Assembly (NCBI GenBank): GCA_049287005.1
Contig: JBAQEZ010000003.1
Span: 265,745-329,744 of the forward strand
Reading direction: 5' to 3'
Length of the DNA stretch: 64,000 bases
Origin: Candidatus Moraniibacteriota bacterium
Lineage (GTDB): Bacteria > Patescibacteriota > Minisyncoccia > Moranbacterales > UBA1568
A program made the position numbers and the translations under genes. The notes below the pieces were generated by a model. It was not told the DNA's origin. It saw nothing but the letters and a program-made list of their open reading frames with translations, and made no database searches. Shown one piece after another: positions 12,182-29,052 of the stretch (its first letter is position 1; every line of letters begins with the position of its first letter).

Positions 12182-12205
12182 CGGGTGATGTATGATTTAA
12201 GAATA

Positions 12206-12236
12206 AAAGATCGCTTGGCGATCTTTATCTTTCTCA
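12206..12236 (+). terminator. Terminator-like hairpin directly after rpsG, inside the str operon
   Basis: AAAGATCGC-ttgg-GCGATCTTT followed by ATCTTTCTC. Confidence 0.4.
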
Positions 12237-12268
12237 GAATCTTTGGTTTTCACCAAAAAAATAGTTTT

Positions 12269-12547: not shown

Positions 12548-12589
12548 AGGCATTATTCATAAATCTAAAATCTTAAATCTAGCATTCTT

Positions 12590-14695: not shown

Positions 14696-14739
14696 GGCGG
14701 AAACTACGAATGAGGAGCCGGGAATTATGCATTATGGCA

Positions 14740-14764
14740 ACCAGCCGCTGTGGCTGGTTTTATT
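14740..14764 (+). terminator. Rho-independent terminator after fusA
   Basis: CCAGCC-gctgt-GGCTGG followed by TTTTATTG. Confidence 0.6.
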
Positions 14765-14840
14765 GTGTTTGTTAAAAAATACTTTAGATAAGCCAGGAGA
14801 GGTTGTGATTTTGCCCGGATTGTGCTATAAATGAAGCATG

Positions 14841-14868
14841 CTGAATCTGTATTCAGGTGTTTTTATTT
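14841..14868 (+). terminator. Second terminator-like hairpin
   Basis: CTGAAT-ctgt-ATTCAG followed by GTGTTTTTATTT. Confidence 0.4.
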
Positions 14869-15096
14869 CCTCTCTCGCATGTATGGTATTGGGCACTGGC
14901 ATTTTCAGGAAAACAAAATTGGCAACTCAGATAAGAAAACTCCGAGCGTAAGTTTGGGGTTTTTATGAATGGGAAAAAATAAAGGAAAACAAGATGGAAA
15001 CGAATGAGGAAAAGTTTTATCAAGAAGATTTTCTAAGGATCAAGAAGATGTATTTTCTAAAATATTTGCAGCATAAAGGCAAATTTTAGCGGGATT

Positions 15097-15741
15097 ATGA
15101 TACGAATAATCAGCGGGGGTAAAAAAATTGTTTGTTCATGCACGGAAGTCGGCATCGCGATGGTGCAAATCGCGACATACATTGCTTTTTCTAGAATTTT
15201 ACGTTATTTTTTTCGGGCTGATCGCAAAGTATCCCGGACGATAAGCCAGCTCAGAAGGGGGTCGCTGATCATTTCTAATCACCAATCGATCTTGGACCCC
15301 TTCATTATTTTGGCGCATTTGCCGACTCGCTCATTCCTCAAAGCGGTGCCTATTCGTTTCCCGGTGACTCACAGCTATTATAAATATCTGCGGTTTTTGG
15401 CTTTATTTGGAGCCTACGATATCGGTGCAGACAAAAGGGAACGGATGCTGGGATTGTTTTATACCCGAGATTTATTAAAATCAGGGGAAAGCGTCATGAT
15501 TTTTCCTGAAGGCAGGATTTGTGCGGCCGGAGAGATGCTGGATTTCCAAAATGGAATCAAATTTCTTACGGATGTCTCTGCTAATGTGGTTTTTGTCAAA
15601 ATGGAAGGATTTTATCAAAAAGACTGGCTGAAATTCCAAATGTTGCGCGGAGTTATTTTCAGCGAAGTCCGATATTTTAATGGAGAACAGGAAGACCCGG
15701 AAAATATCCGGGTGTTGATGAAAAAATTATCAGCTCATTGA
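15097..15741 (+). CDS. PlsC/LPLAT-family acyltransferase (lysophospholipid acyltransferase-like)
   Basis: NHQSILD is the H-x4-D acyltransferase motif and FPEGR is the second PlsC motif. The N-terminus is hydrophobic. Confidence 0.7.
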   Translation: MIRIISGGKKIVCSCTEVGIAMVQIATYIAFSRILRYFFRADRKVSRTISQLRRGSLIISNHQSILDPFIILAHLPTRSFLKAVPIRFPVTHSYYKYLRFLALFGAYDIGADKRERMLGLFYTRDLLKSGESVMIFPEGRICAAGEMLDFQNGIKFLTDVSANVVFVKMEGFYQKDWLKFQMLRGVIFSEVRYFNGEQEDPENIRVLMKKLSAH

Positions 15742-16400
15742 TAGCTAGTATGCACATAGCTATCGCTCAGTCAAAAAATATAAGTCCCAGCTATTTTTCC
15801 AAGTCTGAATTGGATGAATTGGAAAAATTGGCGGATTATAGAAAGGCAGACTGGTTGGCCAGTCGTTTGGCTGTCAAAAAAGCTCTTCGAAGATTTTTTT
15901 CGGAAAACCAAAAAAAAATTGTATTGAATGAGATACGTATAATCAGTCGGAAATCTTCCCGACCATCTTTCGAAGTCAAAGGAAAGAAATATCTAAACAT
16001 CGCTATCAGTTTGGCACATAGCAATGGCATCGGAGTAGGTGCTGTCAGCGAGACAGAATTAATCGGTGTGGATGTCGAAAATATCAGGAAATTTTCCGAA
16101 GAGTTTAAAGCAGGTTTCCTCACCGAAAAGGAGCTCAGGTGGTTCAAGAAAGTGAAAAAGGCTGAGAATGACAGAATAGCGACACTCTTCTGGTGTATCA
16201 AAGAAGCCTACCTGAAGGCGCTCGGCAGGGGGCTTAAAAAACACCCTCGGGAATTGGAAATACGGTCGAAAAATGGTAGTATGAGGTATATTTCTATTCA
16301 AGATAAAGGAATTCTGACCAATGCAACGGTTTCTTGGTCAATAAGCGATGGATATGCTGTGGCGGCCGTAATCATTCATAATGATGAGAGCGATGAATAA
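15738..16400 (+). CDS. 4'-phosphopantetheinyl transferase (Sfp/EntD-type)
   Basis: IGVDVENI matches the G-x-D-x-E motif and WCIKEAYLKALG matches the W/F-x3-KE-A-x2-KA motif. It overlaps the upstream stop. Possible starts are the TTG at 15738 or the ATG at 15750. Confidence 0.7.
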   Translation: MIASMHIAIAQSKNISPSYFSKSELDELEKLADYRKADWLASRLAVKKALRRFFSENQKKIVLNEIRIISRKSSRPSFEVKGKKYLNIAISLAHSNGIGVGAVSETELIGVDVENIRKFSEEFKAGFLTEKELRWFKKVKKAENDRIATLFWCIKEAYLKALGRGLKKHPRELEIRSKNGSMRYISIQDKGILTNATVSWSISDGYAVAAVIIHNDESDE

Positions 16401-16668
16401 GAAAATTTTTGAAATCGTGAAGGGCGTGATTTTCGAAACCTTGCAAGTCGATACCGAAGGAGTGAGTCTGGAAGACAAGATAGAGGATATTTGCCAGGAC
16501 TCCATCCAGATTTTCAGCCTGGTGATGAATTTTGAAAAAAAATTCAACTATAGGATCAATTACGGCGACTTGATAAAAATAGAAACGGTCGGCGATATCG
16601 TCGATCTGGTTGTTCAGTTGGAGGAAAAGGGGGAGATTTCATCTGAGGAGACCAATTTTAAAGGATAA
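16393..16668 (+). CDS. acyl/peptidyl carrier protein
   Basis: About 90 aa and acidic. DSIQIFSLVMNFEKKF fits the D-S-(L/I) phosphopantetheine attachment site at the start of helix 2. Its start overlaps the PPTase stop. Confidence 0.65.
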   Translation: MNKKIFEIVKGVIFETLQVDTEGVSLEDKIEDICQDSIQIFSLVMNFEKKFNYRINYGDLIKIETVGDIVDLVVQLEEKGEISSEETNFKG

Positions 16669-16672
16669 TTAA

Positions 16673-17440
16673 ATGGACATATTGAAAGTAATACTGGTTT
16701 TTTCTCTGATATGCATCCTATCGTTTGCGGTCTTTTTTGTGATTCCATCGGGATTTTTCAAAAACTTTTCGTTTAAGTGGCATTACTATGCCTACTCTTT
16801 CTCTGGGACTCCGGAGAAGATGGACGCGCTGAATAAGGAGAGTATCGATACTTCGCGAACAACCGGAAAGCCGATAACGATCGTGATTCATGGAGCGGAG
16901 ACAACATACTATAAGGATGTGTACGGCACCGTGGTTTGGTTTAAAGAAAATGGAGTAAACGTGGTTTCTTTCGATTATGATTTTAAAGCCGCGCCGGATG
17001 TATCCGCACGAAAATTAAGCGATTTTGTCGATGAAACATTGAAAGAAACCGGCACCAGAAAAGTCAATATCATGGGCACCTGCCTGGGGGGCATACTTGC
17101 AAAGTACTATGCGGAAAATTTCGGAGGGGCGGAGCATATCGATAAGTTGATTACGGTCATTTCTCCGGCCAGACCGATTCCCGAGACTGCGATCGCCTAC
17201 CAGTATGATACATTATTCTCTTTCGATCCGGCGTCATGGAATCAGGTTCTGGCAGGGCTGCAGGATAAGAACCCCGTCAAGGATCATATGTATTTCTACT
17301 GCAAGAATGACATTACGGTGCCGGCAAAGTATCAATTTTCGAGCGTGGGAAATTTTATCGGGTTAGAATGCGAGCACTCTTTCAATAACGTGAATCCGGA
17401 AGTGCTCGAGCCAGCATTGGATTTCATCAATACTCATTAA
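16673..17440 (+). CDS. lipase_2 (LipA)-like alpha/beta hydrolase with Cys in the nucleophile position
   Basis: An N-terminal TM/signal segment is followed by ITIVIHGAE...VNIMGTCLGG. That is the lipase class-2 layout, with G-T-C-L-G in place of G-x-S-x-G. Confidence 0.5.
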   Translation: MDILKVILVFSLICILSFAVFFVIPSGFFKNFSFKWHYYAYSFSGTPEKMDALNKESIDTSRTTGKPITIVIHGAETTYYKDVYGTVVWFKENGVNVVSFDYDFKAAPDVSARKLSDFVDETLKETGTRKVNIMGTCLGGILAKYYAENFGGAEHIDKLITVISPARPIPETAIAYQYDTLFSFDPASWNQVLAGLQDKNPVKDHMYFYCKNDITVPAKYQFSSVGNFIGLECEHSFNNVNPEVLEPALDFINTH

Positions 17441-17459
17441 AATATTATTACACATCAGA

Positions 17460-18200
17460 ATGGAAAGGATACTGGAAAAAGACGAATATACTTCTCCGGT
17501 CAGCGCCGAAGCCTATAGCGATATGGTCGACAAGTACAAATCGATGGTCCATGGCGGATTTGTCGAGCGCATATTGGAACGCGCCGACGATGGGTCAAAA
17601 ATTCTGGATGTCTGCACCGGCCCCGGACAGGTGCCGATCGAATTGGTTGAGAGGGGTGATTTCGAGATTACCGGCCTGGATGTTTCGCGAGAAATGCTGA
17701 ACGTAGCGGAAAGGAACGCTGCGGCCCGGAATGTGAAAGAGAAAATACGTTTTGTTCGGGGGAGTGTCGAACAGAATGATCTGCCAAAAAACTCTTTTGA
17801 TATCGTGGCTTGCTTCAACGCCATGCATCATTTCGAAGACCCTATTTTTCTGTGGCAGAAATTGAGAGCGCTCACGAAGCCGGGAGGAAGCATTTTTCTT
17901 GAGGATCTCGTCCGTCCGTCAGGGTGGCTTATCCCTCTCTATGTCATCGTATTCGGAGGGTTCGACCGGGAAGTTAGGAAACAATATCGCGATTCTTTAT
18001 TGGCGGCTTTATCGAGAAAAGAATGGATGAATCTTTTCGCTTCCGTGAAAAAGAACGACCCAGCGATCCTGAAGACGCATTTCTTGACGCATATGAGCAT
18101 CGTCATGACCGGTTCGAGCAATGCGGTCAAAAAAAATGTGGAAATAGGCTTGGGTGGAAATTTCTTTATCAGGGCCATCAGGGAGATTTTCTACAAATAA
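17460..18200 (+). CDS. class I SAM-dependent methyltransferase
   Basis: ILDVCTGPGQVPIEL is motif I, there is an acidic residue after beta-2, and FNAMHHFEDP is the motif IV region. Confidence 0.7.
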   Translation: MERILEKDEYTSPVSAEAYSDMVDKYKSMVHGGFVERILERADDGSKILDVCTGPGQVPIELVERGDFEITGLDVSREMLNVAERNAAARNVKEKIRFVRGSVEQNDLPKNSFDIVACFNAMHHFEDPIFLWQKLRALTKPGGSIFLEDLVRPSGWLIPLYVIVFGGFDREVRKQYRDSLLAALSRKEWMNLFASVKKNDPAILKTHFLTHMSIVMTGSSNAVKKNVEIGLGGNFFIRAIREIFYK

Positions 18201-18228
18201 CGGGTATTGACACGATTTTACCGGCACT
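18196..18228 (+). promoter_or_regulatory. Shared upstream motif, copy 1 (AAATAACGGGTATTGACACGATTTTACCGGCACT), in front of the exporter genes
   Basis: Near-identical to the reverse complement of 26868-26900, which lies upstream of the ThiF-like gene. It contains TTGACA. Confidence 0.45.
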
Positions 18229-18311
18229 GCGCTTGGGGCCGAAAGGTTGCTTTCGTTTCGCTCGCTTCGTTTGGTAATAAAAATCAGGTTTCAGTTAATG
18301 CTCGTGGTTTT

Positions 18312-19517
18312 ATGAATCATTATGTCAGTCGTTTGAAGATTCTGCTTTCTTTCGCTTTGCGGGATGTCTCCAAGAGCCGGATTATTTTGGTTTTTACCAT
18401 TATGAGCCTGAGTGCCGCGTTCACGGCTGTTTTTGTTTCGGCCGGAGTTTTGGATGGTTTTCAGGCCATGTTGGAGAGAGGATCGATCGATACGGGAGGG
18501 GAGCTGACTATAAAGGCGAAAACCGGGAATGGGGGCATCGAAAATATCGATGATGTGACACGGATTCTGGGTGCTGAAAAAAATATAGCAGGGTATAGTG
18601 TCAGAAGCTATGGCGGCCTGAAAGCAAAAATGGATGGCAAGTATAAGGGGCATGGGTATGCTGCTATCGGTGTCGATCCGATGCAGGAACGGGAGGCGAC
18701 GCAGATACCGGATCGGGTGATTGCCGGCCGTTACCTGCTTCCGGGAGATACGCGCAGCGTGGTGGTCGGTATAACTATGGCGGATTCGCTCAAAGGATTG
18801 CTCTATGACAATCAGGAGGTTCATGTCGGAGATAAGATCAGATTCATCGGACCGTCGAATAATAAGGGCAGAGACTATACTATAGTGGGAATTGCCAGTA
18901 CTAAATATTTTCATCCCGATTGGAGCACCTATTTTCCTAAAAAGGAAATCGAATGGCTGGACAATACGCGTGAGGATAGCGAAATCATCGTGAAACTGAA
19001 AGATCCCGCGCAAATGGATGAAACGAAAAAAAAGTTGCAGCGCTTGTTGCCGTATGCTGAAGTTTTCAATTGGAAGGAAAGAGAAGGCTATATTTTCAAT
19101 ATAGTGACCATGGTCAATTTCATTACCAGTACGATCAGCAATCTGCTTATCATTACCACGTTTGTCATCATGAGCGTGATCATTTTCATCAACGTGCACC
19201 AGCGTCGGCGGCAGATCGCCATCCTCAAGTCCATGGGCGCCAGCAGCCGGTTCGTCGTGGCCATCTATGTCGTACAGACTTTGACGTACTCGCTGTTCTC
19301 ATTCGCGCTGGCTTATCTGACATTTCTTCTGATGCATAGTTTTTCCCTGAACCATCCGATACCGATGCAGATCGGAGATTTTCATACGGTCGTAGTGGAT
19401 AAAAGCATGGCGCAGATGTTCGGGATACTCTTCCTTGCTTCTCTCGTGGGGAGTCTTTTTCCTTCGTATATGGCCGCACGAACCCGTATCGTCGATGTTT
19501 TGCGAAATACGGTTTAG
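18312..19517 (+). CDS. ABC transporter permease, FtsX/MacB-like
   Basis: An N-terminal TM helix, a large extracytoplasmic domain and a C-terminal FtsX 3-TM domain with ILKSMGASSRFVVAIYV. The ATG at 18312 is chosen by homology to the paralog start MSHYLSRL. Confidence 0.8.
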   Translation: MNHYVSRLKILLSFALRDVSKSRIILVFTIMSLSAAFTAVFVSAGVLDGFQAMLERGSIDTGGELTIKAKTGNGGIENIDDVTRILGAEKNIAGYSVRSYGGLKAKMDGKYKGHGYAAIGVDPMQEREATQIPDRVIAGRYLLPGDTRSVVVGITMADSLKGLLYDNQEVHVGDKIRFIGPSNNKGRDYTIVGIASTKYFHPDWSTYFPKKEIEWLDNTREDSEIIVKLKDPAQMDETKKKLQRLLPYAEVFNWKEREGYIFNIVTMVNFITSTISNLLIITTFVIMSVIIFINVHQRRRQIAILKSMGASSRFVVAIYVVQTLTYSLFSFALAYLTFLLMHSFSLNHPIPMQIGDFHTVVVDKSMAQMFGILFLASLVGSLFPSYMAARTRIVDVLRNTV

Positions 19518-19539
19518 AAAAAAATAACAGTTGGTTCTT

Positions 19540-20739
19540 ATGAGTCACTATCTCAGCCGGTTGGGCATCCTTCTCTCCTTCGTATTGCGGGATGTTTCCA
19601 AAAGCCGCTTCGTTCTCATTTTTACGACCATCAGTCTGAGTACCGCTTTTACGGCCGTTTTCCTTTCGGCCGGCATCTTGGAAGGTTTCCAAGTTATGCT
19701 GAAAAGCGGCGCTATAGATACGATGGGTGAAATCGTCATTTATCCGAAAGACGGAGAGACTCACATCGAAAATATCGAATCTATCAGTCAAGAAATCAAA
19801 GATACGGAAAACGTCGAATCATTCAGTGTCAGGGATGTGGGAGAAGCTATCATAGAATATGGCGATACGAAAATCGGTCCTTATGCCACCATGGGTATGG
19901 AGGTTGCGCGAGAAGCATCCGTTACCAAATTGCCCGAGGATATCACAGAGGGAAGATTTTTGAACAACAAAGATTCAAAAAACGTGGTTTTGGGCGCGAC
20001 ACTCGCGGACGCGTTGGTCGGCCTTCAATATGACGGCAGGAGGGTCCCCATCGGTGGCAAGGTCAAGATATCCTCCGGTACCGGTCAGCAGGGAGAATAC
20101 ACTGTTGTCGGTATCCTAGATGGTAAGACATTTGCTCCCAACTGGGTTGTCTATTTCAATAAAGATGAGTTGGACAAGTTCGAACCACGGTATAAAGACA
20201 ACCAGATCGTGGTGAAGCTGAAGGATCCAACGCAGCCCGCAATAACCAAGCAGATTTTGCGGCAAAAAAAATTAGATATGCAGGTTGTGACTTGGCAGGA
20301 TGAGGCCGGATTCATAGCCAATATAGTCTCTGCGACCAAATTCGTGACCGGTTCCATCAGCGGACTTTTGATAATTGCGGTGTTCGTCATCATGAGTGTG
20401 ATTATTTTCATCAATGTCTCCCAGCGTCGGCGGCAGATCGGTATTTTGAAATCCATGGGCGCGAGCAATCGGTTTATCGTGGCCATCTATGTTTTTGAGG
20501 CTTTCACCTACGCTACCATCTCCTTCGCTTTCGGACTCTTGTTTTTCATGCTCATTCATATCCATTCGACCAGCAACCCAATGCATACTCTCATAGGTGA
20601 TTTTCATACTGAATTCAACCCTCAAGATATCGTTCCTTCGCTTATCGTGCTGGTACTGGCTTCAATGGGTGGGAGTTTTTTCCCGGCCCTTTCGGCGGCA
20701 AGAACGCGCATTGCTGATGTCGTTCGTAGCGGTGTATAA
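19540..20739 (+). CDS. ABC transporter permease, FtsX/MacB-like (paralog)
   Basis: Same architecture as the upstream permease, with ILKSMGASNRFIVAIYV. Confidence 0.8.
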   Translation: MSHYLSRLGILLSFVLRDVSKSRFVLIFTTISLSTAFTAVFLSAGILEGFQVMLKSGAIDTMGEIVIYPKDGETHIENIESISQEIKDTENVESFSVRDVGEAIIEYGDTKIGPYATMGMEVAREASVTKLPEDITEGRFLNNKDSKNVVLGATLADALVGLQYDGRRVPIGGKVKISSGTGQQGEYTVVGILDGKTFAPNWVVYFNKDELDKFEPRYKDNQIVVKLKDPTQPAITKQILRQKKLDMQVVTWQDEAGFIANIVSATKFVTGSISGLLIIAVFVIMSVIIFINVSQRRRQIGILKSMGASNRFIVAIYVFEAFTYATISFAFGLLFFMLIHIHSTSNPMHTLIGDFHTEFNPQDIVPSLIVLVLASMGGSFFPALSAARTRIADVVRSGV

Positions 20740-20753
20740 TCATAATTAAGCAT

Positions 20754-21467
20754 ATGGAAATTCTTGCCAGTTTGAAAGATGTTCACAAAGAATATCGGAT
20801 GAGCAAAGTGCTGACCATCCCGGCGCTTAATGGTGTCACTCTGGATATCTTCAAAGGCGAGTTCCTGGCGATTACCGGACATTCCGGCTCCGGAAAGAGC
20901 ACGATGCTGAATATTCTGGGGCTTCTGGACGAACCGACACGCGGCGAGATGTATTTCGCGGGACACGAAGTCCACAATTTTACGGAAAAGCAGAGAGTCG
21001 ATCTGCGTTTGAATACGATGAGTTTTGTGTTTCAGTTTTTCAATCTGATTGACAATTATACGGCGCTGGAAAATATAAAATTCCAGCTGTTCCTGCAGGG
21101 CTGTGGCGGCAGGGAGGCGAATCGTCGATCGCAAGAAATTATTGATTTTTTGGGGCTCAAGGAACGTGCTTCCTTTTTCCCGCACGAGCTTTCCGGCGGC
21201 GAACAGCAGCGAGTGGCTATCGGGCGGGCGCTCGCCAAGGACTCCCTGATCATTATGGCTGATGAACCGACGGCGCATCTGGATTCCGCGAACGGGCAGG
21301 CAACTATCCAGTTATTGCACGATATCAACAAGAAATTCAATCGGACAGTGGTTCTGGTGACGCACGAAGAAGAGGAGGCGCGTCATGCTGATCGCAACGT
21401 GATGATGAGTGACGGAAAAATCTTGGAAATCAAGATACACCAAAAGATTGAAATAAAGCCTGAGTAG
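20754..21467 (+). CDS. ABC transporter ATP-binding protein (MacB/LolD-type)
   Basis: GHSGSGKST is Walker A, LSGGEQQRVAIGRAL is the signature motif, and IIMADEPT is Walker B. Confidence 0.9.
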   Translation: MEILASLKDVHKEYRMSKVLTIPALNGVTLDIFKGEFLAITGHSGSGKSTMLNILGLLDEPTRGEMYFAGHEVHNFTEKQRVDLRLNTMSFVFQFFNLIDNYTALENIKFQLFLQGCGGREANRRSQEIIDFLGLKERASFFPHELSGGEQQRVAIGRALAKDSLIIMADEPTAHLDSANGQATIQLLHDINKKFNRTVVLVTHEEEEARHADRNVMMSDGKILEIKIHQKIEIKPE

Positions 21468-21484
21468 ATGCTATAATTGGAAGT

Positions 21485-23038
21485 ATGCAAGGCAAAAAAA
21501 TAATTCTTACCATTCTGGTACTCGCGTTTTTGGGAGGCGCGGGACTTTTTGTATTTTTGAAATTTACGACAACCGAAAACGCAAAAAATATTTCTCCGGA
21601 AAATGGTAACGGATTTGTTGTCCAGAGTGGTTCTGCCGACCCTTCTGTGGAAGTGGATGACGCAGCACTTGTTCCGAAGGAAGACATGCACCTGGCGTTT
21701 GAGATGGGCGGAAAAATCCAAAAAGTGCTGGTAACGGAAGGACAAAGCGTGAACGAGGGAGATGCCCTGGTACAACTGGATACGACACAGCTGGCTATCG
21801 TCAAACGGCAGGCAGAGGCCGGAGTGAAGCAGGCACGGGCCGGCTTGGATAGATTGATCAATGGACTAACGGTGGCAGATCTCAAAGTCTTGCAAGCTGG
21901 TAAGAAGTCCGCTGATGAGTCGGCCGATGCTTTGCATGGAGGCGTCTTGGACGCCTTGCAGGGTTCTTTCACAGCGGCGGATGACGCAATGCGCGGCAAA
22001 ACGAATGCGCTTTTTACTGATCCGGATGGCGCGGATCCACAATTGAATATCCCGGTTTCTGACAGCAGCCTCGAGTTGGCTATCGAATCGTCTCGCCTCG
22101 AATTGAATACGGATCTGGAGTCTTTCAAAAATCGTGTCAATGGCCTAGGTTCGGGTAGTGATCCGGATAAAGAAACATCTCATGCCAAAGATTTTCTCAA
22201 TGAAGTGGCTAGTTATCTGACGAATGTAGCCAAGGCAGTGGATATACTGACGACTGCAGACGGTCTTACTCAAGACGAAATCGATGCCTTGAATGTGGCG
22301 GTTTCTACTGGTCGGGGAGAAGTGGATACAGCCAAAGCCGCCCTGGCCAAGGGATTGGCAAAGTTCAGCTTAGCGAATGGGGCATTTTCAGTAGCCACGA
22401 AGGATTATAAATCGAAAACGGTCGGACCGCGGCCGGAAGATATCGCGGTTGCGACCGCGCAAGTAGATGTGGCACGCGACCAGCTGAGCCTGGTAAATGA
22501 ACAGATAGCGAAAACTATATTAATTGCACCACATGCCGGAATGGTGAGTAAGATATGGTTCAAGGAAGGAGAAATTGATCCAGCTGGCCAGCCGGTCATC
22601 TCTTTTCGTAGTTCAGAAATGAAGATCCAGGCTGACGTGCCGGAAGAGGATATTTTGAAAGTTGCTATTGGTTCAGCTGCACGCGTAAAATTCAAAGCAT
22701 TGGTGCAGACAGTTTTTTTCGGAAAAGTCGACGCTATCGAAGCTCATGAAATCAACAAAGATGGGGATGTTTATTATCGCGTAGATATCGGGTCGTCGGA
22801 CTTTAACCCGCCTTTGCGTTCAGGTATGACCGCAGACGTGTTCATTGATTCGGCAGAGCAAGATAGTGCCATCAAGATTCCCTCAAGCTATGTCAGCTGG
22901 CGCGCCGGCCGTAGTTATGTTACGGTTGTAAATGCCGGTAAACGGCAAGAGGTCGAGGTCGAAACCGGAGCGACTGACGGAGACTCCACTGAGATCAGCA
23001 GCGGACTACAGGAAGGTCAGCAGCTCCTTTCGCCCTAA
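21485..23038 (+). CDS. HlyD-family periplasmic adaptor (membrane fusion protein)
   Basis: An N-terminal TM helix; the biotin/lipoyl-like hairpin GGKIQKVLVTEGQSVNEGDALVQLDTT; a long helical segment; a C-terminal beta-barrel. Confidence 0.75.
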   Translation: MQGKKIILTILVLAFLGGAGLFVFLKFTTTENAKNISPENGNGFVVQSGSADPSVEVDDAALVPKEDMHLAFEMGGKIQKVLVTEGQSVNEGDALVQLDTTQLAIVKRQAEAGVKQARAGLDRLINGLTVADLKVLQAGKKSADESADALHGGVLDALQGSFTAADDAMRGKTNALFTDPDGADPQLNIPVSDSSLELAIESSRLELNTDLESFKNRVNGLGSGSDPDKETSHAKDFLNEVASYLTNVAKAVDILTTADGLTQDEIDALNVAVSTGRGEVDTAKAALAKGLAKFSLANGAFSVATKDYKSKTVGPRPEDIAVATAQVDVARDQLSLVNEQIAKTILIAPHAGMVSKIWFKEGEIDPAGQPVISFRSSEMKIQADVPEEDILKVAIGSAARVKFKALVQTVFFGKVDAIEAHEINKDGDVYYRVDIGSSDFNPPLRSGMTADVFIDSAEQDSAIKIPSSYVSWRAGRSYVTVVNAGKRQEVEVETGATDGDSTEISSGLQEGQQLLSP

Positions 23039-23112
23039 GAGACTTTTGAGCAGACACTGAGAACAGTAGATTATTGAAGGAGCTGTCTTTTAAATTATCT
23101 GAATCTTATCGT

Positions 23113-24201
23113 ATGTTTCATTTTTTATACGTCCATATTTTCAGAAGAATAGTTTTTTTGCTTGATCCTGAAAAAGTGCATGATGGCATAGTGATGTTTG
23201 GAAGGAATTTGGGCAAATATAGTCTCACAAGGAAGATGACCAGAAGCCTATTGAGTTATCAGAACCAGGCTCTTTCGCAAACGGTAAGAGGAATACATTT
23301 CTCTAATCCGGTCGGGCTTTCAGGTGGCTTCGACAAGAATGCTGAGCTGACTGATATTATTCCGGAGGTTGGTTTTGGCTTTATGGAAATCGGTTCGGTC
23401 ACTGGAGAAAAATGTGATGGCAATGCAAAGCCGCGGTTGTGGCGACTCAAAAAATCCAAAAGTATCCTGGTCTATTATGGTTTGAACAATGATGGTGCCG
23501 AAGCTATTGCTCAAAGGTTGCGGGGAAAAAAGTTCAGGATTCCCGTCGGTGCCAATATCGCTAAGACGAATAATCAGAATACGGTAGGGAAAGAAGCCGG
23601 CGCAGCCGATTATTTGAAAGCTTATAAAGCGATGCAGGACATAGCTGATTATTTTACGATCAATATCAGCTGTCCGAATGCCTATGGCGGCTGCCCGTTT
23701 ACGGACAAAGAGTATCTGGATCATTTATTGTCGAGACTTGCAGAAGTTCCCAAGACAAAGCCGAGCTTTATCAAGCTCTCGCCCGATCTTTCGCATGAAG
23801 AAATCGACGGTATCATCGAGGTGGCCAGAAAACACGATATCGATGGGTTCGTTTGTTCGAATCTGACCAAGAGCCGCAACAATCCGAAGATCGTAGAAAA
23901 AGATTTTTCTGAATGTGGAGGGATGAGTGGAAAAGTAGTCATAGATCTTTCCAATGATCTCGTCGAGTATATTTATCGGAAAACAGGGAAAGAGTTCGTG
24001 CTCATCGGCCTAGGCGGTATTTTTTCCGCCGAGGATGCGTATAAGAAAATCCGTCTGGGCGCAACCTTGGTGGAACTGATAACGGGCATGATTTTTGAAG
24101 GCCCTCAGGTGATCGGTGATATCAATCAGGGGCTGGTAAAATTGTTAAAAAAAGATGGCTTCAAGAATATTTCCGAGGCAATTGGTGCCGATATCAGATA
24201 A
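23113..24201 (+). CDS. pyrD: dihydroorotate dehydrogenase-like flavoenzyme (class-2-type N-terminus)
   Basis: LDPEKVHDGIV is the class-2 N-terminal region. GFGFMEIGSVT, GLNNDG and NISCPN (Cys where class 2 has the catalytic Ser) also fit. GGIFSAEDAYKKIRLGATLVEL closes the FMN site. Confidence 0.75.
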   Translation: MFHFLYVHIFRRIVFLLDPEKVHDGIVMFGRNLGKYSLTRKMTRSLLSYQNQALSQTVRGIHFSNPVGLSGGFDKNAELTDIIPEVGFGFMEIGSVTGEKCDGNAKPRLWRLKKSKSILVYYGLNNDGAEAIAQRLRGKKFRIPVGANIAKTNNQNTVGKEAGAADYLKAYKAMQDIADYFTINISCPNAYGGCPFTDKEYLDHLLSRLAEVPKTKPSFIKLSPDLSHEEIDGIIEVARKHDIDGFVCSNLTKSRNNPKIVEKDFSECGGMSGKVVIDLSNDLVEYIYRKTGKEFVLIGLGGIFSAEDAYKKIRLGATLVELITGMIFEGPQVIGDINQGLVKLLKKDGFKNISEAIGADIR

Positions 24202-24211
24202 GATACGTCTT

Positions 24212-24868
24212 ATGCAGATTGATTTTTGTCGGGCTCGCTGTGATGCTGATCAACAGGGTGCGTTCGATCTTGTTTCAGAGGAATATAAGAAGGACGGATA
24301 TATCGATGTTGACGCCCGTCCGGACATCCCTGTCTATAATTTTTTGCTGACCTCGGCAACTTTTATCGCTAAGGCTGATAAGACAATAATCGGAACGGTG
24401 ACAATCGTTGGTGATGGGGAAAAAGGCTTGCCCATGGAAAATATCTATGAGGAAGAAATCGGGGAGCTGCGTTGGTCTGGAAAAAAAATGGCGGAAATCT
24501 CGCAATTAGCAATCAAGCGCGGAACGGCTGAAAATCCGGATATGCATCAAAGAAAAATCCAGACGAGCATTCCGCTTGCCCTCTTCAGGGTCGTTTATTT
24601 TTTTGCGAAAAGCCAGGGTATCGGGAATTTCTGTATCGCCATCAATCCGAAGCATGAAACTTTTTATAAATTACTCGGCTTCGAAGACATCGGTGGATTG
24701 AAAAGCTATTCTTTTGTCAACGGTGCTCCAGCTTTGGCCAGGATGTTGGACATCACGCAGGATCCCAAAGTACTGGCAGAAAAAAGCTTTATTTTTGATG
24801 AGATAATAAAAAATCCGCTGACGGCAGGGGATTTTGAACAAGCAATCATTTTTTCGCAAGAAATCTAG
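24212..24868 (+). CDS. putative GNAT-fold N-acyltransferase (FeeM/OlsB/autoinducer-synthase-like)
   Basis: About 218 aa. The call rests on overall residue pattern and size only; it is not motif-proven. Confidence 0.35.
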   Translation: MQIDFCRARCDADQQGAFDLVSEEYKKDGYIDVDARPDIPVYNFLLTSATFIAKADKTIIGTVTIVGDGEKGLPMENIYEEEIGELRWSGKKMAEISQLAIKRGTAENPDMHQRKIQTSIPLALFRVVYFFAKSQGIGNFCIAINPKHETFYKLLGFEDIGGLKSYSFVNGAPALARMLDITQDPKVLAEKSFIFDEIIKNPLTAGDFEQAIIFSQEI

Positions 24869-25938
24869 ACATTCTTCATAATTTTCTCGATTGCTTTTCT
24901 GCCGGAAACGGCGGATGGGCCTTTGGCATAGCCCAAACGGAAAAGAGCGACTGGAGTTTCGTTTTTCAGGTTTGGAAACGTTGCGTGAAAAAAATCAGCA
25001 ATCTCATTTTGTATCCGTTGATACTTCGGAGAGAGACCTCCTCGGGATAAGCGCTGGTTGAGTATCAGACACAGCGTTCCGAAAAGCGGTTGCATAAAGA
25101 TATTTTTCGTCGTCAGATATAGCCAGATGGCTTGCATTGCTCGTCCTCCTCCGAGGTAGGTGTGTGGATGGTGATCCTTGGAGTATGTTATGAAGGCGAG
25201 CGCTCCGGATCTTTTCACGTTTTGACTAGTATGTATCACTGAACCGACCCCCATGACTTTCCAAAGAAGCTTGATCTTTTCTGCCAGATAGATGGTCGGT
25301 TTGAAAAAATGCTTTTTCAGCCCGAGTTCTAGGCTTTCTAAGGGCAAGCCGACGACGGCCTGTTCATTTTTTTCAAAGCTGACCATGCGTAGCAGGTTAT
25401 CGCGTAAAGCCTTATCTCCCCAAAGTATGTAGTCATGAATACCTATGATTCGAGAAAATTGTTTGATGATTTGTGGATCTTCAATCCAACACAGATGGGC
25501 GCCTTTCGCTTCGGCCAAGGCTTGGAGCTTATTTTTGATATCTCTGGCTATTTTTTTCGTCGAGTAAGCGCGACGGTTCGTTTTTCGCTTGGCGAGAGAA
25601 TCAAGCAGATCTGATGAATAAGGATCGTGGGTTTTTTTGAGTTCGATTTTTGCTATAGGATGAGCACTTTCAAAAAAATTGATTTCTGGCGTGTATCCCA
25701 AGTGATGCGCCTGTACGTGCATGTTTTCGATGACCGCTCCTAAGCTGACATAATCAGCGAAAAAATCGATATTGTACAAATGATTGGCAGCCGTATGTTC
25801 CACGTCATGATGCACATAAATCGCATTTTCTTCAACGGTAAAAAACCACGGCTGGGAGTTATCCGCAGACGGTGAAAGTCGACCGGCCTCGATTATTTTC
25901 TGAATATTTTCTTTCATTTTCAAAATCTCAGTCATCAC
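24865..25938 (-). CDS. tandem nitroreductase-fold flavin oxidoreductase (SagB/ThcOx-like dehydrogenase candidate)
   Basis: The N-terminal half AGRLSPSADNSQPWFF is a nitroreductase FMN motif. The second half begins RRAYSTKKI, typical of a second nitroreductase-like subdomain. Confidence 0.55.
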   Translation of the reverse strand: MMTEILKMKENIQKIIEAGRLSPSADNSQPWFFTVEENAIYVHHDVEHTAANHLYNIDFFADYVSLGAVIENMHVQAHHLGYTPEINFFESAHPIAKIELKKTHDPYSSDLLDSLAKRKTNRRAYSTKKIARDIKNKLQALAEAKGAHLCWIEDPQIIKQFSRIIGIHDYILWGDKALRDNLLRMVSFEKNEQAVVGLPLESLELGLKKHFFKPTIYLAEKIKLLWKVMGVGSVIHTSQNVKRSGALAFITYSKDHHPHTYLGGGRAMQAIWLYLTTKNIFMQPLFGTLCLILNQRLSRGGLSPKYQRIQNEIADFFHATFPNLKNETPVALFRLGYAKGPSAVSGRKAIEKIMKNV

Positions 25939-25965
25939 ATAAGGCGGGGCACCGTGAATAGTCGT

Positions 25966-26838
25966 TTAGAGACGGCCGCGAGATTTCAGGACTGAAGTCA
26001 TAATGATTCGTTTCAGGCGCTGGATCGGATTCTTGTTACCGAAAGGCACCCAGACCCTTTTGAGTTTTTTCAGGTATGGATCAAAGTGCAAGGATGCCGG
26101 TGCCGAGCGTACTTTTTCTCCGAAGATAATTTTCAGGGCTTCGCAGGAAACAAGGTTGGCGCATAAGAGGGTTCCCGTGACCAACGAGGGAGCCTTTCTT
26201 TCTTTCCAATTGACAGCATCCGGATTGAAATAAGATCTTTGAAGCAAGGTGGGAGTCAGTCCGAGACCGAAGCGTACGAGCATCTCTTCTTTTGTCTGGC
26301 TATCTTCAAGATCGAAATATTCATCGAAGCGCATTCCCTGTGGGTTGAAGACGAGCATGGAAGAACCGAAGCCGACGGGTCCGGCCGTGAGGGCGAAGAG
26401 GCCGCGCTTCTGTGACTCTCGAAACAGCATCCGCCGGGTCGCGATACTGAAGAAGTCTATTCCATCCAAAACAATATCGGTATTATCCAGAAACTCCGCG
26501 ATATTCTCATCGTGGATGCCTTTGGGAAAGGCGGTCACTTTTGCGTAGGGATTGATCGCGAGGATCATGTTTTTTATCACCTCGGTTTTCGGTTTTCCGG
26601 CAGTCTCTATCGTTGATCCGGCCTGGCGATTCATATTGCCCACTTCGAAAACATCGAGATCGGCAATATGAAAATTTCCGAATCCCAGGCGAGCGAAAGT
26701 GGTCGCATAGATCCCGCCTGCGCCTCCCAGCCCGGCTATGGCGACTGTACTCTCTCGGAGCTTCTCTTGCTGTTCGTCCGTCAGAAGGCCCTTATTCCGT
26801 GAAAAGGCTTCCTGATAAAAGCGTAATGATTCGTCCAT
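25966..26838 (-). CDS. ThiF/MoeB/HesA-family E1-like adenylyltransferase
   Basis: IAGLGGAGGIYATTFARLGFGNFHIADLDVFEVGNMNRQ is a Rossmann-type nucleotide loop plus the E1 NRQ motif. The start is placed at MDESL (26838). The ORF-track start at 26892 would run through the shared upstream motif. Confidence 0.75.
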   Translation of the reverse strand: MDESLRFYQEAFSRNKGLLTDEQQEKLRESTVAIAGLGGAGGIYATTFARLGFGNFHIADLDVFEVGNMNRQAGSTIETAGKPKTEVIKNMILAINPYAKVTAFPKGIHDENIAEFLDNTDIVLDGIDFFSIATRRMLFRESQKRGLFALTAGPVGFGSSMLVFNPQGMRFDEYFDLEDSQTKEEMLVRFGLGLTPTLLQRSYFNPDAVNWKERKAPSLVTGTLLCANLVSCEALKIIFGEKVRSAPASLHFDPYLKKLKRVWVPFGNKNPIQRLKRIIMTSVLKSRGRL

Positions 26839-26867
26839 AGCGATAAGGTTAATAGCTTTATTACCAA

Positions 26868-26900
26868 ACGAGTGCCGGTAAAATCGGGTCAATACCCGTT
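26868..26900 (-). promoter_or_regulatory. Shared upstream motif, copy 2 (reverse complement AAATAACGGGTATTGACCCGATTTTACCGGCACT)
   Basis: It matches 18196-18228 except at one position (A/C, right after TTGAC). It lies upstream of the ThiF-like gene. Confidence 0.45.
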
Positions 26901-27248
26901 ATTTTAGAATCTTGCGACTATCTGGTAGTGCGGAAAAGTATAGATAGACCGTCTTAAAAAATCATGGTATCGCAAAATCATACCAAATGCAATTTCAATG
27001 TATTGCCAAACCATTCGAATGATAAATAACGCAACTGTTTTTCAGGAAAATGCTCTTTATAGTGCTATTCCCTATGTCAAAGGTATGAGGGAAATCACTC
27101 TATATATTATACAAAATATACGTGAGAAGCGCCATCTCAGAACTTCAAGTGAGGGTTACCAATCGGCCTAAGTCTATTGTTATATTTTCTGACTTCAATT
27201 AACAATTCAGGAGACTAAAGACTAGGATGATACAGCGGGCCGAGAACC

Positions 27249-27277
27249 TTGACAGATATTTCGTCAGCTGTTATTAT
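27249..27277 (+). promoter_or_regulatory. sigma70-type promoter upstream of tuf (TTGACA-17-TATTAT)
   Basis: TTGACA at 27249-27254, a 17-nt spacer, TATTAT at 27272-27277. Confidence 0.4.
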
Positions 27278-27432
27278 TCTCAGTGATGCTTTTACCCAAG
27301 CTTTTTTCATTTTTGTTTGGAAAAACTTTGGAGCGAAAAGAACATTTTTGAGTAAAAAATAATTCGTAATTATTAGGAGAGCACGGATACTTTACGGAAC
27401 GTAAAGGCACGCGCAATCATACGATAAAAGTT

Positions 27433-28623
27433 ATGGCAGAGCAATTTGACCGCAGCAAGCCCCATGTAAACGTCGGTACAATTGGCCACGTTGACCACGG
27501 CAAAACAACCTTGACCGCCGCTATTTTGCATGTCCAGCATTTCTTGGGCATGGCGAAAGAAAAGGGTATCGACGAAATCGACAAGGCTCCAGAAGAGCGC
27601 GAGCGCGGTATCACTATCGCGACAGCTCATTGTGAGTATGAAACTGAAAAGCGTCATTACGCGCATGTTGATTGCCCTGGTCACGCTGACTATATCAAGA
27701 ACATGATTACGGGTGCCGCTCAGATGGACGGTGCTATCCTCGTGGTCTCTGCTACTGATGGTCCGATGCCGCAGACACGTGAGCATATCCTCTTGGCTCG
27801 CCAGGTAGGTGTGCCGGCTATCGTTGTTTTTTTGAACAAGGTAGACATGGTGGATGACGCGGAACTCATTGAGCTCGTGGAAGCTGAAGTGCGCGAACTC
27901 CTTTCCAAATATGAATTTGATGGCGATAAGGCGGTTATCATTCGTGGCAGCGCTTTGAAAGCTTTGGAATCGAAATCAGCTGATGATGCTGATGCCAAGC
28001 CGATTCTTGATCTCATGAAGGCTATCGATGAAAACATTCCACAGCCAGTGCGTGATCTGGACAAGCCGTTCCTCCTCCCGATCGAAGATATTTTCTCGAT
28101 TGAAGGTCGTGGTACGGTAGTGACTGGTCGTATCGAGCGCGGTATCGTGAATGTCGGTGACGAAGTGGAAATCGTCGGTCTCCGTGATACTGCCAAGACG
28201 GTGGTAACGGGTATCGAAATGTTCAACAAATCTCTGAATCGCGGTGAATGTGGTGATAATGCCGGTATCCTGATTCGTGGTATCAAGAAGGAAGATGTCG
28301 AGCGCGGTCAGGTTTTGGCCAAGCCAGGTTCCATCACTCCGCATACGGAATTTGATAGCGAAGTCTATGTGTTGTCCAAAGAAGAAGGTGGACGCCACAC
28401 TCCGTTTTTCAAAGGATACAAACCGCAGTTTTATATTCGCACCACTGACGTGACTGGCGAAGTAGAATTGCCGGAAGGCACTGAAATGGTGATGCCGGGT
28501 GACACTGTGAAGCTCAAGATCAAGCTTTTGGCACCTGTGGCCATGGAAGAAGGGATGCGCTTCGCCATTCGTGAAGGTGGCCGTACGGTCGGTGCCGGCG
28601 TCGCAACCAAGATTTTGAAATAG
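27433..28623 (+). CDS. tuf: elongation factor Tu
   Basis: [27 protein letters not shown] and NKVDMVDD are the G1, G3 and G4 motifs. Confidence 0.97.
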
Positions 28624-28725: not shown

Positions 28726-29052
28726 ATGAAAAAGACAGAAACGACGCAGAATCTGCGTGTCAGGATTAAAATCAAGGCTTACGATCACAAGGTGATTGAT
28801 CAGTCTGCCAGGAAAATCGTCGAAACAGCCGAACGTACCGGCGCAGTGATTACCGGTCCGGTGCCGCTGCCGACAGAAATCCACAAGGTGACCGTTAATC
28901 GTTCCACGTTCGTGCACAAGAACTCTCGCGATCAGTATGAGATGCGGGTACACAAGAGATTGATCGATATCGTCAACCCGACGGCCAAAACGATCGAGAA
29001 CCTGACGAACCTGGATCTCCCCGCCGGAGTCGATGTCGAAATTAAAATGTAA
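28726..29052 (+). CDS. rpsJ: 30S ribosomal protein S10
   Basis: [28 protein letters not shown]... Confidence 0.95.

Follow-up and report, generated by a model that had tools for sequence, protein, structure and literature searches.

The str operon of a Candidatus Moraniibacteriota bacterium is interrupted between fusA and tuf by a block of 13 genes, which is very probably an accessory insertion of ~12.5 kb in one lineage of Moranbacteria. The source is a metagenome-assembled genome (MAG) from this group of the candidate phyla radiation (CPR), and coordinates below are positions in the 64-kb window, meaning the whole stretch of DNA that was analysed. The FeeM and ThiF proteins described below are 100% identical to NCBI proteins from a MAG of this name (locus tag WAV46_02425, 766,823-bp contig). 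The inserted genes look like one self-contained cluster for making and exporting a lipid derived from an N-acyl amino acid, of the oxazolone type. We put the probability of the two together, an insertion that carries an oxazolone-class cluster, at roughly 0.6. This reading rests on gene content, protein families, intact catalytic motifs, a site that is empty in relatives, recurrence of the genes elsewhere and Rosetta-stone fusions.

The insertion and its site

Gene order in the window runs rpsL (11191-11607), rpsG (11714-12181), fusA, the 13 genes, tuf, rpsJ (28726-29052) and the S10/spc operons. A preliminary description of the sequence had placed the end of fusA at 14695, the start of tuf at 27433 and 11 plus-strand and two minus-strand genes between them; the layout of open reading frames (ORFs) agrees, and all 13 have Pfam matches. 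That description also held that tuf normally follows fusA directly, and this is the case: the gap is mostly 40-200 bp in ~50 diverse genomes having both genes, among the matches listed, and the largest, in an Uhrbacteria MAG, is 2.35 kb. The survey used an EF-G search of genome contigs and covers matches of ~65% identity from many phyla (close relatives were found instead by protein search and their contigs). Against this norm, the 12.7-kb gap is a clear outlier.

Close relatives show what the site looks like when empty. We compared the four closest EF-G relatives located on long contigs, found by a protein search with EF-G, and all four have fusA, tuf, rpsJ, rplC and so on in that order. Their fusA-tuf gaps are 827 bp in GCA_023261645.1 (L089; EF-G identity 97%), 846 bp in GCA_028688415.1 (L090; 97%), where the gap holds one 115-aa GFA gene, 205 bp in GCA_037441965.1 (L091; 94%) and 143 bp in GCA_030648835.1 (L092; 92%). 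Nucleotide homology to these genomes (blastn) ends at 14696-14703 and restarts at 27249 in L089 and at 27282 in L090-L092, which delimits the insert at ~14704-27248. The gap is thus 12.7 kb, as first described, while the insert itself is ~12.5 kb. The break in homology at both ends, together with the short gaps of the relatives, identifies the block as a lineage-specific insertion. The preliminary description had proposed an acquired island and had named the same genes at the same position in close relatives as the finding that would speak for an ancestral feature; the four closest relatives show the opposite, fusA followed by tuf.

The point of insertion lies in the short stretch, a few dozen bases long, that separates the stop codon of fusA from a pre-existing tuf promoter. 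The alignment upstream of tuf shows conservation of the TTGACA box, the -10 box and the 5' leader across the five genomes, so the tuf promoter is older than the insertion. The promoter reported earlier, TTGACA-17-TATTAT, is present (27249-27277; 11 of 12 consensus positions and a TG upstream, by scan), but it is native and no consequence of the island. Placed in this way, the insert should leave tuf expression intact, with its own left end supplying the terminator after fusA. One of the two terminators originally described there is a good intrinsic terminator by scan (14739-14759, within the left end of the insert); the other is a weak AT-rich hairpin with a T-run near 14843-14870 that is visible by eye and was not called by the scan. 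The conserved tuf 5' leader (AGTGATGCTTTT.CCCAAGCTTTTTTCATTT...; 27282-27432) begins directly after the -10 box, is strongly conserved in the five Moranbacteria genomes and has no Rfam match, the scan of the window giving only a tRNA-Pro.

Composition sets the insert apart from its surroundings, in line with the check that the preliminary description had proposed. Its GC content is 45.2% against 50.4% for the rest of the window, and the mean for island genes is 0.453 against 0.507±0.028 for the other ORFs of the window (Mann-Whitney p = 6e-6). The AT-rich flanks are a different matter. They do have 35% (14870-15096) and 36% (26893-27432) GC, but the rpsG-fusA spacer has ~38-39% and the fusA-tuf spacers of the relatives 31-38%, so the flanks are not special by comparison with other spacers of this genome or its relatives. 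As noted before, the mechanism of acquisition is not evident: none of the 13 genes matches an integrase or transposase in Pfam or NCBIfam, and the non-coding ends of the insert have no homology to the relatives or to other clusters. Among the marks of a genomic island, we thus find a site that is empty in relatives and a deviating composition, and no hallmarks of mobility.

Several observations weigh against acquisition. The tetranucleotide deviation is modest (r = 0.88 versus ~0.92), and the relatives' own GC spans 39-48%. No flanking direct repeats or att-like sites were found around the insert, and the nearest candidate tRNA target is 5 kb off.

Two explanations would do without an insertion in this lineage. 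That foreign DNA was mis-joined into the str operon during assembly or binning is scarcely credible: the source is a MAG, and Logan assemblies break exactly at 18281, in an internal inverted repeat, but both junctions occur in other assemblies at 100% identity to the window, a finding that tells against a chimeric contig. L121 and L122 carry the left junction (fusA into the LPLAT gene), and L001 carries the right one (ThiF gene into tuf). L121 is a second NCBI assembly, GCA_049304235.1, in which a single contig runs from an M50 gene via fusA to the nitroreductase gene; L122 and L001 are Logan contigs of the same population. All three probably derive from the same population or sample, so that their independence is one of assembler only. 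The other explanation, an ancestral cluster at this site or an intragenomic rearrangement, precisely deleted in the relatives and with no lateral acquisition, we consider improbable. In its favour, the block has no mobility genes, the spacer is prone to indels in the group (L089, L090 and L003), and the identities to the closest cluster found elsewhere, L082 (64-86% for island proteins, only 47% for the adaptor), fall inside the range that ordinary window proteins show to the four relatives (54-88%). Set against these points, the cluster is missing at the site from all four relatives and from the more distant CPR loci L002-L004, which makes a single gain more parsimonious than gain followed by loss. 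The GC of the block is also below that of the host genome, no FeeM homologue in the protein database exceeds 64% identity even though all four relative MAGs are NCBI assemblies, and MurD of L082 is only 52% identical, compared with 64-86% for the island genes. The L082 identities suggest, short of proof, transfer among Moranbacteria-like CPR bacteria.

The fusA-tuf spacer looks like a recurrent indel hot spot in CPR relatives. L090 carries its 115-aa GFA-family gene at 12288-12635, L089 has 638 bp of unrelated sequence at 12115-12752, and the spacer of the Uhrbacteria MAG L003 (12092-14443) holds three ORFs (methyltransferase-like, kinase-like and 122-aa). The str operon of the window also contains a second small lineage-specific insertion: a 92-aa DUF1653 gene (12269-12547) lies inside a 408-bp rpsG-fusA gap (~39% GC), the same gap measures only 81-172 bp in the four close relatives, and a DUF1653 match is absent from every locus fetched for comparison.

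A FeeM-ThiF-nitroreductase core

Three genes at the right-hand side of the insert encode a FeeM-family N-acyl amino acid synthase, an FDO-type flavoenzyme of the nitroreductase superfamily and a ThiF/E1-like adenylating enzyme. Natural fusions tie them together. PRK14852 (989 aa) is a FeeM+ThiF+nitroreductase fusion in which each of the three window proteins matches its own segment, FeeM the N-terminal part; PRK14851 and PRK07877 (the family of Rv1355c, i.e. TrzS) combine ThiF with nitroreductase, and both match window proteins. The FeeM gene is convergent with the nitroreductase gene, with a 4-nt overlap (an alternative FeeM start at 24155 would overlap the gene upstream, which encodes a flavoenzyme similar to dihydroorotate dehydrogenase, DHODH).

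The ThiF protein scores 348 bits against PRK08223 (cut-off 266) and matches PRK14851 (1.9e-90) and PRK14852 (3.1e-64). Its motifs GLGGAGG (GxGxxG), NMNRQ (NxxRQ) and DGID (DxxD) are present, and D128 aligns with D127 of E. coli ThiF. An AlphaFold2 model (mean confidence, pLDDT, 95.9) has an E1-like fold whose nearest matches in the PDB are AclA (9EGB, the top match), ThiF, PaaA, MoeB and MccB. These are generic E1-like neighbours; no OxzB or TyzB structure was among the fold matches, and a literature search on AclA returned nothing relevant. The nitroreductase matches the 'Rv1355c family' model PRK07877 at 3e-49 (model positions 371-719), PRK14851 at 1.5e-44 and the Acg family at 1.3e-33, and contains the flavin motif RLSPSADNSQPW. 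It fits the Rv1355c-family model better than the Acg/FDO-B model, which suggests the FDO-A type found in TyzC, OxzB and Rv1355c. The locus therefore has the parts expected of an oxazolone pathway: a synthase of the FeeM/LuxI-like fold beside ThiF and FDO genes, a ThiF-type enzyme of the subgroup linked or fused to FDO, with its ATP/Mg motif, whose Asp would correspond to D217 of TrzS, and an FDO nitroreductase. A ThiF homologue with 51% identity, P0074, is named 'uncultured bacterium CSLC2'; this may be a soil environmental-DNA cosmid clone isolated for production of long-chain N-acyl amino acids, although the literature matches to the name are unrelated. If it is such a clone, it would lend the link between ThiF and the synthase independent functional support.

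Among solved structures the synthase best matches FeeM (2G0B) of the environmental-DNA 'fee' cluster, an ACP-dependent synthase of long-chain N-acyl amino acids that, like FeeL, belongs to a cluster encoding its own acyl carrier protein (ACP); the match spans residues 67-201 only. To our knowledge the fee cluster has no ThiF/FDO pair.

Three characterized systems and one set of genome-mined clusters share the core logic. In M. tuberculosis, TyzABC (Rv2336, Rv2338c and Rv2337c) comprises a FeeM-fold N-acyltransferase (TyzA), an O2-dependent FDO desaturase (TyzC) and a ThiF-type ATP-dependent cyclase (TyzB), and tyzA lies on the strand opposite tyzCB (PMC10404671). The window cluster has the same three separate proteins, the same opposite-strand layout of synthase gene and ThiF/FDO operon and a single-domain FDO nitroreductase of ~350-370 aa; a lipid transporter gene, mmpL9, is near the tyz genes. 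The tyz cluster differs in having no LPLAT, hydrolase, methyltransferase, MacB pump or DHODH-like gene, and its host is an aerobic actinobacterium. OxzAB of Pseudoalteromonas rubra pairs the N-acyltransferase OxzA with OxzB, a ThiF-nitroreductase 'oxazolone synthetase' (bioRxiv 10.1101/2020.06.11.147165), and TrzAS corresponds to Rv1356c/Rv1355c (PMC12856293). Both use the same N-acyltransferase, ThiF and nitroreductase logic, but there ThiF and nitroreductase are fused in a two-gene operon with the acyltransferase, whereas the window has split genes in a 13-gene cluster. The stieleriacine clusters of Planctomycetota, described by genomics and knock-outs, contain a synthase, a methyltransferase, ThiF and nitroreductase (PMC12479983), and the window likewise has a methyltransferase beside the other three. 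Stieleriacines are secreted N-acyl dehydro-amino acids, oxazolones not having been detected, and such a product is a plausible end point for the window cluster too. No dedicated ACP, 4'-phosphopantetheinyl transferase (PPTase), LPLAT, exporter or DHODH-like gene is reported for these clusters, which belong to another phylum. The preliminary description had pointed to this block as the likeliest place for an undescribed system. Its core is instead a known one, and the pathway class is probably acyl-oxazolone or N-acyl-dehydroamino-acid (bioRxiv 10.1101/2020.06.11.147165, PMC10404671, PMC12856293, PMC12479983).

The left part of the insert encodes an LPLAT acyltransferase, a PPTase, an ACP, an α/β-hydrolase and a methyltransferase. 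The LPLAT protein is closest to the acyltransferase domain of Aas (acyl-ACP:lysophospholipid acyltransferase), matches acyl-[ACP]--phospholipid O-acyltransferase in NCBIfam and keeps its motifs HQSILD (HX4D) and FPEGR. The PPTase carries the motifs GVDVE and WCIKEAYLKA, and its start codon is that of the NCBI gene call on L121. In the α/β-hydrolase the nucleophile elbow reads GTCLG, with Cys in place of Ser; such an enzyme could conceivably catalyse a thioester-forming acyl transfer, for example ACP loading. Weak homologues of it (~22% identity) that lie beside FeeM in L123, L124 and L125 have GxSxG at the same position, as G(Y/H)SEG. A 260-aa protein of L085 was also considered as a homologue and rejected, its alignment being spurious at 21% identity. 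Methyltransferase genes accompany the clusters in L123, L125 and ERZ1426612 as well.

From these families we infer the substrate amino acid, acyl source, order of steps, final structure and export of a candidate pathway. The PPTase would convert the dedicated ACP to its holo form, which would carry a fatty acyl group, loaded perhaps with help from the hydrolase, the LPLAT or both. Because fatty-acid synthesis is reported to be missing from CPR bacteria, this acyl group would presumably be scavenged. The FeeM-type synthase would then use it to acylate an amino acid at the α-amino group, and desaturation of Cα-Cβ by the FDO-type nitroreductase would follow. The ThiF-like enzyme would adenylate the carboxylate and cyclise the product to an oxazolone, unless the N-acyl-dehydroamino acid is itself the end point. 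The methyltransferase may methylate the product and the LPLAT may add a second acyl group, and the MacB-type tripartite pump may export it or place it in the envelope.

Some points weigh against an oxazolone-class pathway. The link to the Tyz and Oxz proteins, TyzA, TyzB and TyzC included, comes from NCBIfam models, fusions and gene order. None of the characterized oxazolone clusters has an ACP, PPTase, LPLAT or DHODH-like gene, and the related clusters L123 and L125 have no recognizable FDO gene nearby. CPR bacteria are generally regarded as anaerobic fermenters. Characterized FDO desaturases, by contrast, require O2 (PMC10404671, PMC12856293). TyzA and TrzA also use acyl-CoA and not acyl-ACP, whereas the window cluster encodes its own ACP and PPTase.

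Two other functions for the genes were weighed. The leading one is membrane-lipid salvage or aminolipid synthesis in a cell unable to make lipids itself, in which FeeM and LPLAT would act like OlsB and OlsA with a dedicated ACP to make a structural (acyloxyacyl) aminolipid or re-acylate scavenged lysolipids, MacB would flip the lipid, and ThiF and nitroreductase would do no more than modify its head group. An N-acyltransferase and an LPLAT domain are present and conserved together, the LPLAT resembles the Aas domain, and the best-conserved block of the cassette consists of LPLAT, PPTase, ACP and FeeM. CPR bacteria are moreover reported to be without lipid synthesis and rich in lysolipids (bioRxiv 10.1101/465690), and acpP and an α/β-hydrolase 'lysophospholipase' have been singled out as horizontally acquired in Patescibacteria (PMC12455944). 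We nevertheless think this function unlikely: there is no NCBIfam match to OlsA, OlsB or glycine-lipid synthases at E ≤ 0.01, the close relatives live without the cluster, so it is not essential membrane machinery, and the genes stay linked or fused to ThiF and FDO, which points to chemistry of the oxazolone or dehydro kind. Another occurrence of the cassette is in L125, a genome with cytochrome oxidase in which dependence on scavenged lipids is not expected. The other is maturation of a ribosomally synthesized and post-translationally modified peptide (RiPP), resembling that of thiazole/oxazole-modified microcins (TOMMs) with an E1-like partner and a SagB-type dehydrogenase, or a sulfur-carrier system of the ThiS/MoaD type, with the ABC transporter exporting a modified peptide. 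Both folds do occur in TOMM systems, the structural neighbours of the ThiF model include PaaA and MccB, MacB/HlyD exporters often lie beside bacteriocin genes, and the adaptor shows weak similarity to DarC and NHLP adaptors. But neither the 13 genes nor small-ORF searches of both flanks gave a gene for YcaO, ThiS, MoaD or a precursor peptide. The matches of the nitroreductase are to the FDO families Rv1355c and Acg and not to SagB models, and the ThiF protein reaches the PRK08223 cut-off, matches fusions that include a FeeM domain and has no CxxC zinc motif, all of which makes this function very improbable. The small-ORF searches found only one 31-aa ORF with a ribosome-binding site, on the left, no convincing small ORF at the right end and no conserved precursor candidate. 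Anti-phage defence of the kind built on Cap2-like E1 enzymes was rejected, PADLOC returning no more than generic similarity to E1 domains (≤ 7.6e-14) and a match to a methyltransferase domain.

Recurrence of the cassette

The same genes travel together elsewhere. We collected clusters from the contigs of FeeM and ThiF homologues and from a metagenome scan with a FeeM alignment, and annotated them by tblastn. The cassette is found in more than 15 independent loci of 31-60% GC, in several arrangements: ThiF-LPLAT-PPTase-ACP-FeeM in L100 and L103-L107; ThiF-(nitroreductase)-LPLAT-PPTase-ACP-FtsX-ABC-FeeM in L095 and L097; FtsX-ABC-adaptor-DHODH-like-FeeM with a convergent nitroreductase gene in L082-L084, L094 and L088; and hydrolase, methyltransferase, FeeM, ACP, PPTase, LPLAT, ThiF and MacB/ABC in L123-L125. 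Its core is ThiF-LPLAT-PPTase-ACP-FeeM, and nitroreductase, FtsX/ABC, adaptor, hydrolase, methyltransferase and DHODH-like genes vary. LPLAT lies beside PPTase, ACP and FeeM in L085, L095, L097, L100, L103-L107, L123 and L125. Because the genes recur together, the 'lipid tailoring', 'exporter' and 'ThiF/nitroreductase' genes, first listed as separate oddities, make up one coherent biosynthetic system. L125 also encodes cytochrome oxidase, which makes a CPR origin unlikely and respiration probable.

A search for the island elsewhere, suggested in the preliminary description, thus returned homologous clusters at other sites in other genomes, and none of them lies between fusA and tuf. L082 is located by rplA-rplK-nusG-secE, L123 by secE-nusG-rplK, L085 by GH130 and UvrB genes, ERZ1426612 by RNase HII and L32 genes, and L115 is convergent with rplD of the S10 operon.

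FeeM-type clusters repeatedly adjoin translation-gene operons (L082, L123, L115 and ERZ1426612). Chance could account for this in small genomes dense in ribosomal genes; alternatively, the clusters may favour landmarks that are conserved or strongly transcribed.

The DHODH-like flavoenzyme

Between the exporter genes and FeeM lies a gene for a flavoenzyme with the architecture of class 2 DHODH (PyrD). The protein matches curated DHODH models in full length, with 352.9 bits against NF003652 (cut-off 267) and 299.9 against TIGR01036 (cut-off 200), and falls below the cut-offs of eight other class-2 equivalog models (PRK05286 series). In the PDB it is most similar to the rat and human enzymes (2e-61), and the N-terminal LDPExxH helix domain is kept. 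The earlier statement that the block holds no translation or core function therefore needs a qualifier, since one gene scores as a quinone-dependent dihydroorotate dehydrogenase, though an atypical one.

Its active-site motifs depart from that family. Relative to the rat enzyme, NISCPN stands for NVSSPN, LVYYGL for INRYGF and SNLT for TNTT, and all three changes are conserved in four cluster-linked orthologues directly 5' of FeeM. We take the serine of NVSSPN to be the catalytic base of class 2 enzymes, a position held by Cys in the window protein, and the Asn of INRYGF to be an orotate-binding residue, lost in LVYYGL; on these presumed roles, the catalytic Ser and orotate-binding Asn/Thr of class 2 PyrD are missing. 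Class 1 DHODH and DPD use Cys as catalytic base. In L094 and L097, more distant cluster-linked orthologues, the Cys is kept and an Asn lies one position off (VVNYGL), so the 'lost orotate-binding Asn' argument is suggestive only, and a strict 'not a DHODH' verdict based on the missing Asn was weakened accordingly.

Genomic context also differs from that of PyrD. No other pyr genes occur within the 64-kb window, and the neighbours of DHODH-like genes in related loci are FeeM and exporter genes: the gene adjoins FeeM in L082, L085, L088 and L094 and is within the cluster in L097, a tight linkage to FeeM in at least five lineages. It is present in 6 of ~16 distinct clusters examined, which makes it a recurrent accessory component and not part of the core. 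An exhaustive HMMER search returned 10,274 relatives, with the Cys motif in 125 of 150 top representatives; canonical Ser/INR/NTT enzymes appear only at ~38-41% identity to the window protein. The closest representative is P0256, a PAP2-DHODH protein with 59% identity. Fusions among the close relatives join the protein to domains connected with membranes or lipids: the vitamin K epoxide reductase family (VKOR; P0284, P0287, P0300 and P0310), PAP2 phosphatase (P0256) or a cytidylyltransferase (P0268). The window protein thus resembles class 2 PyrD in full-length architecture and differs from it in catalytic-base and pocket motifs, FeeM linkage and fused relatives. Judging by the fusions, members of the Cys-type 'PyrD' family may act in membrane redox reactions or on lipids.

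What the enzyme would do in the pathway we infer from its chemistry. DHODH desaturates Cα-Cβ of dihydroorotate, a cyclic N-carbamoyl-aspartate, the same transformation that FDO performs on N-acyl amino acids. This likeness is the basis of a tentative and rather doubtful variant that would be independent of oxygen and fuelled by scavenged lipids, in which a recruited DHODH paralogue, with its Cys at the catalytic-base position and a more hydrophobic pocket, would desaturate Cα-Cβ of the N-acyl amino acid, or help to do so, and pass electrons to a membrane acceptor, not to O2. On the same speculative footing, the acyl chain might come from host lipids onto the private ACP, and the exported lipid might be a signal, an antimicrobial or a membrane modifier in the interaction of episymbiont and host.

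Exporter, regulatory signals and locus layout

The exporter genes together encode the parts of a MacB-type tripartite system: MacB_PCD/FtsX permeases, an ABC ATPase and an adaptor, for which YknX_C matches were also seen on L001 and L121. MacAB, YknXYZ and DevBCA exporters likewise have MacB_PCD+FtsX permeases, a separate ATPase and an HlyD/YknX-type adaptor; the window differs from them in its two paralogous permease genes, a LolCE-like arrangement. These two genes are joined by internal direct repeats of 71-73% identity.

Upstream of the exporter genes and of ThiF lie two copies of one element, in inverted orientation (34 nt at 97% and 15 nt at 100% identity), the exporter copy having a 38-nt insertion between the blocks. 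The window has no third copy, and shuffled sequence contains none at all. The element carries a TTGAC(A/C) box and TGGTAATAAA, an extended -10-like box, and is probably a shared promoter/operator that would co-regulate the exporter/DHODH-like/FeeM and ThiF/nitroreductase units. At least three transcription units are predicted in the insert: LPLAT-PPTase-ACP-hydrolase-methyltransferase; permeases-ATPase-adaptor-DHODH-like-FeeM; and, on the opposite strand, ThiF-nitroreductase. The second and third have the same ~50-nt upstream element and are read as co-regulated on that account.

At the left end of the insert, a possible promoter, TTGTGA-17-TATAAA, was seen by eye at ~14803-14836. A 31-aa ORF (METNEEKFYQEDFLRIKKMYFLKYLQHKGKF; 14994-15089) with the ribosome-binding site AGGA lies just 5' of the LPLAT gene and was gene-called on the Logan contig L122; a nucleotide search with its region gave no match in other loci. 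Farther downstream, rpsE (S5) is followed by rplO (L15) 25 nt on, with no rpmD (L30) between them (37464-38432). A missing L30 is typical of CPR bacteria, and the arrangement is consistent with a CPR genome, as surmised from the sequence before the source was known.

Table 1. Features of the fusA-tuf insertion and its native flanks, in window coordinates
Feature	Coordinates	Strand	Evidence
fusA (EF-G), left native flank	12590..14695	+	complete EF-G Pfam domain set; 92-97% identity to EF-G of four Moranbacteria MAGs
Left non-coding end of insert	14704..15096	+	fusA terminator, possible promoter, 31-aa ORF; GC 38%
LPLAT/PlsC-family acyltransferase, 214 aa	15097..15741	+	Pfam Acyltransferase 1.9e-11
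Sfp/HetI-type PPTase	15750..16400	+	Pfam ACPS 3.1e-20; NCBIfam pantethn_trn above cut-off
Dedicated ACP	16393..16668	+	Pfam PP-binding; NCBIfam acyl carrier protein models; DSI serine motif
Membrane-anchored α/β-hydrolase	16673..17440	+	Pfam Abhydrolase_1, Palm_thioest (weak); hydrophobic N-terminus
Class I S-adenosylmethionine (SAM)-dependent methyltransferase	17460..18200	+	Methyltransf_25/11, UbiE-like matches
Shared upstream element, copy 1 (34 nt + 15 nt)	18195..18281	+	in 111-nt spacer before exporter genes
MacB-type permease 1 (MacB_PCD + FtsX)	18312..19517	+	Pfam; 68% identity to L082 counterpart
FtsX/MacB-type permease 2, paralogue of permease 1	19540..20739	+	Pfam FtsX
ABC ATPase of exporter	20754..21467	+	Pfam ABC_tran 1.9e-30; 86% identity to L082 protein
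HlyD/YknX-type membrane-fusion (adaptor) protein	21485..23038	+	Pfam HlyD_D23, HlyD_3; NCBIfam RND_mfp above cut-off
DHODH-like flavin mononucleotide (FMN) enzyme, class-2 architecture	23113..24201	+	NCBIfam NF003652, TIGR01036; tight against FeeM gene
FeeM-family N-acyl amino acid synthase	24212..24868	+	Pfam FeeM 3.5e-30; PDB 2G0B FeeM 7.7e-25
FDO-type nitroreductase-superfamily flavoenzyme, putative Cα-Cβ desaturase (TyzC / OxzB C-domain analogue)	24865..25935	-	NCBIfam
ThiF/E1-like adenylating enzyme, putative ATP-dependent cyclase (TyzB / OxzB N-domain analogue)	25966..26838	-	NCBIfam PRK08223
Shared upstream element, copy 2	26857..26904	-	19-66 nt 5' of ThiF start codon
Right non-coding end of insert	26905..27248	.	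non-coding
Native tuf promoter (27249-27277) and conserved 5' leader	27249..27432	+	promoter scan; relatives L089-L092
tuf (EF-Tu), right native flank	27433..28623	+	Pfam; 89-95% identity to EF-Tu of close relatives

Discussion

The FeeM-ThiF-FDO core pathway is known from work of 2020-2025. What is new is the extended cassette, with its ACP, PPTase, LPLAT, hydrolase, MacB pump and DHODH-like enzyme, together with its occurrence in CPR bacteria and its insertion in a str operon. Full-text literature searches found no report of oxazolone or N-acyl amino acid clusters, or of a cluster-linked DHODH, in CPR bacteria (Patescibacteria). The larger conserved cassette of ThiF, LPLAT, PPTase, ACP, FeeM and ABC exporter is present in many uncultured genomes and is not described in the papers on OxzAB, TyzABC, TrzAS and stieleriacines cited here. 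These findings suggest that the reach of the oxazolone / N-acyl-dehydroamino-acid pathway extends beyond Proteobacteria, Actinomycetota and Planctomycetota. The cluster is compact, with ~11.7 kb of genes, small enough to synthesize and express.

The DHODH-like gene belongs to a large Cys-type family that is automatically annotated as PyrD, an annotation we flag here. If the oxygen-independent variant were true, this family, including its VKOR- and PAP2-fused members, would be a lipid-redox family mis-annotated as PyrD.

For the host lineage, the insertion means that fusA and tuf can be separated in this clade, because a conserved promoter of its own serves tuf. CPR bacteria are seen as metabolically minimal symbionts unable to make lipids of their own. 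Here, one of them has a complete 13-gene cluster, apparently acquired not long ago, that includes its own ACP and PPTase as well as acyltransferases, redox enzymes and a pump, which points to a dedicated lipid-like product and to a means of using scavenged acyl chains.

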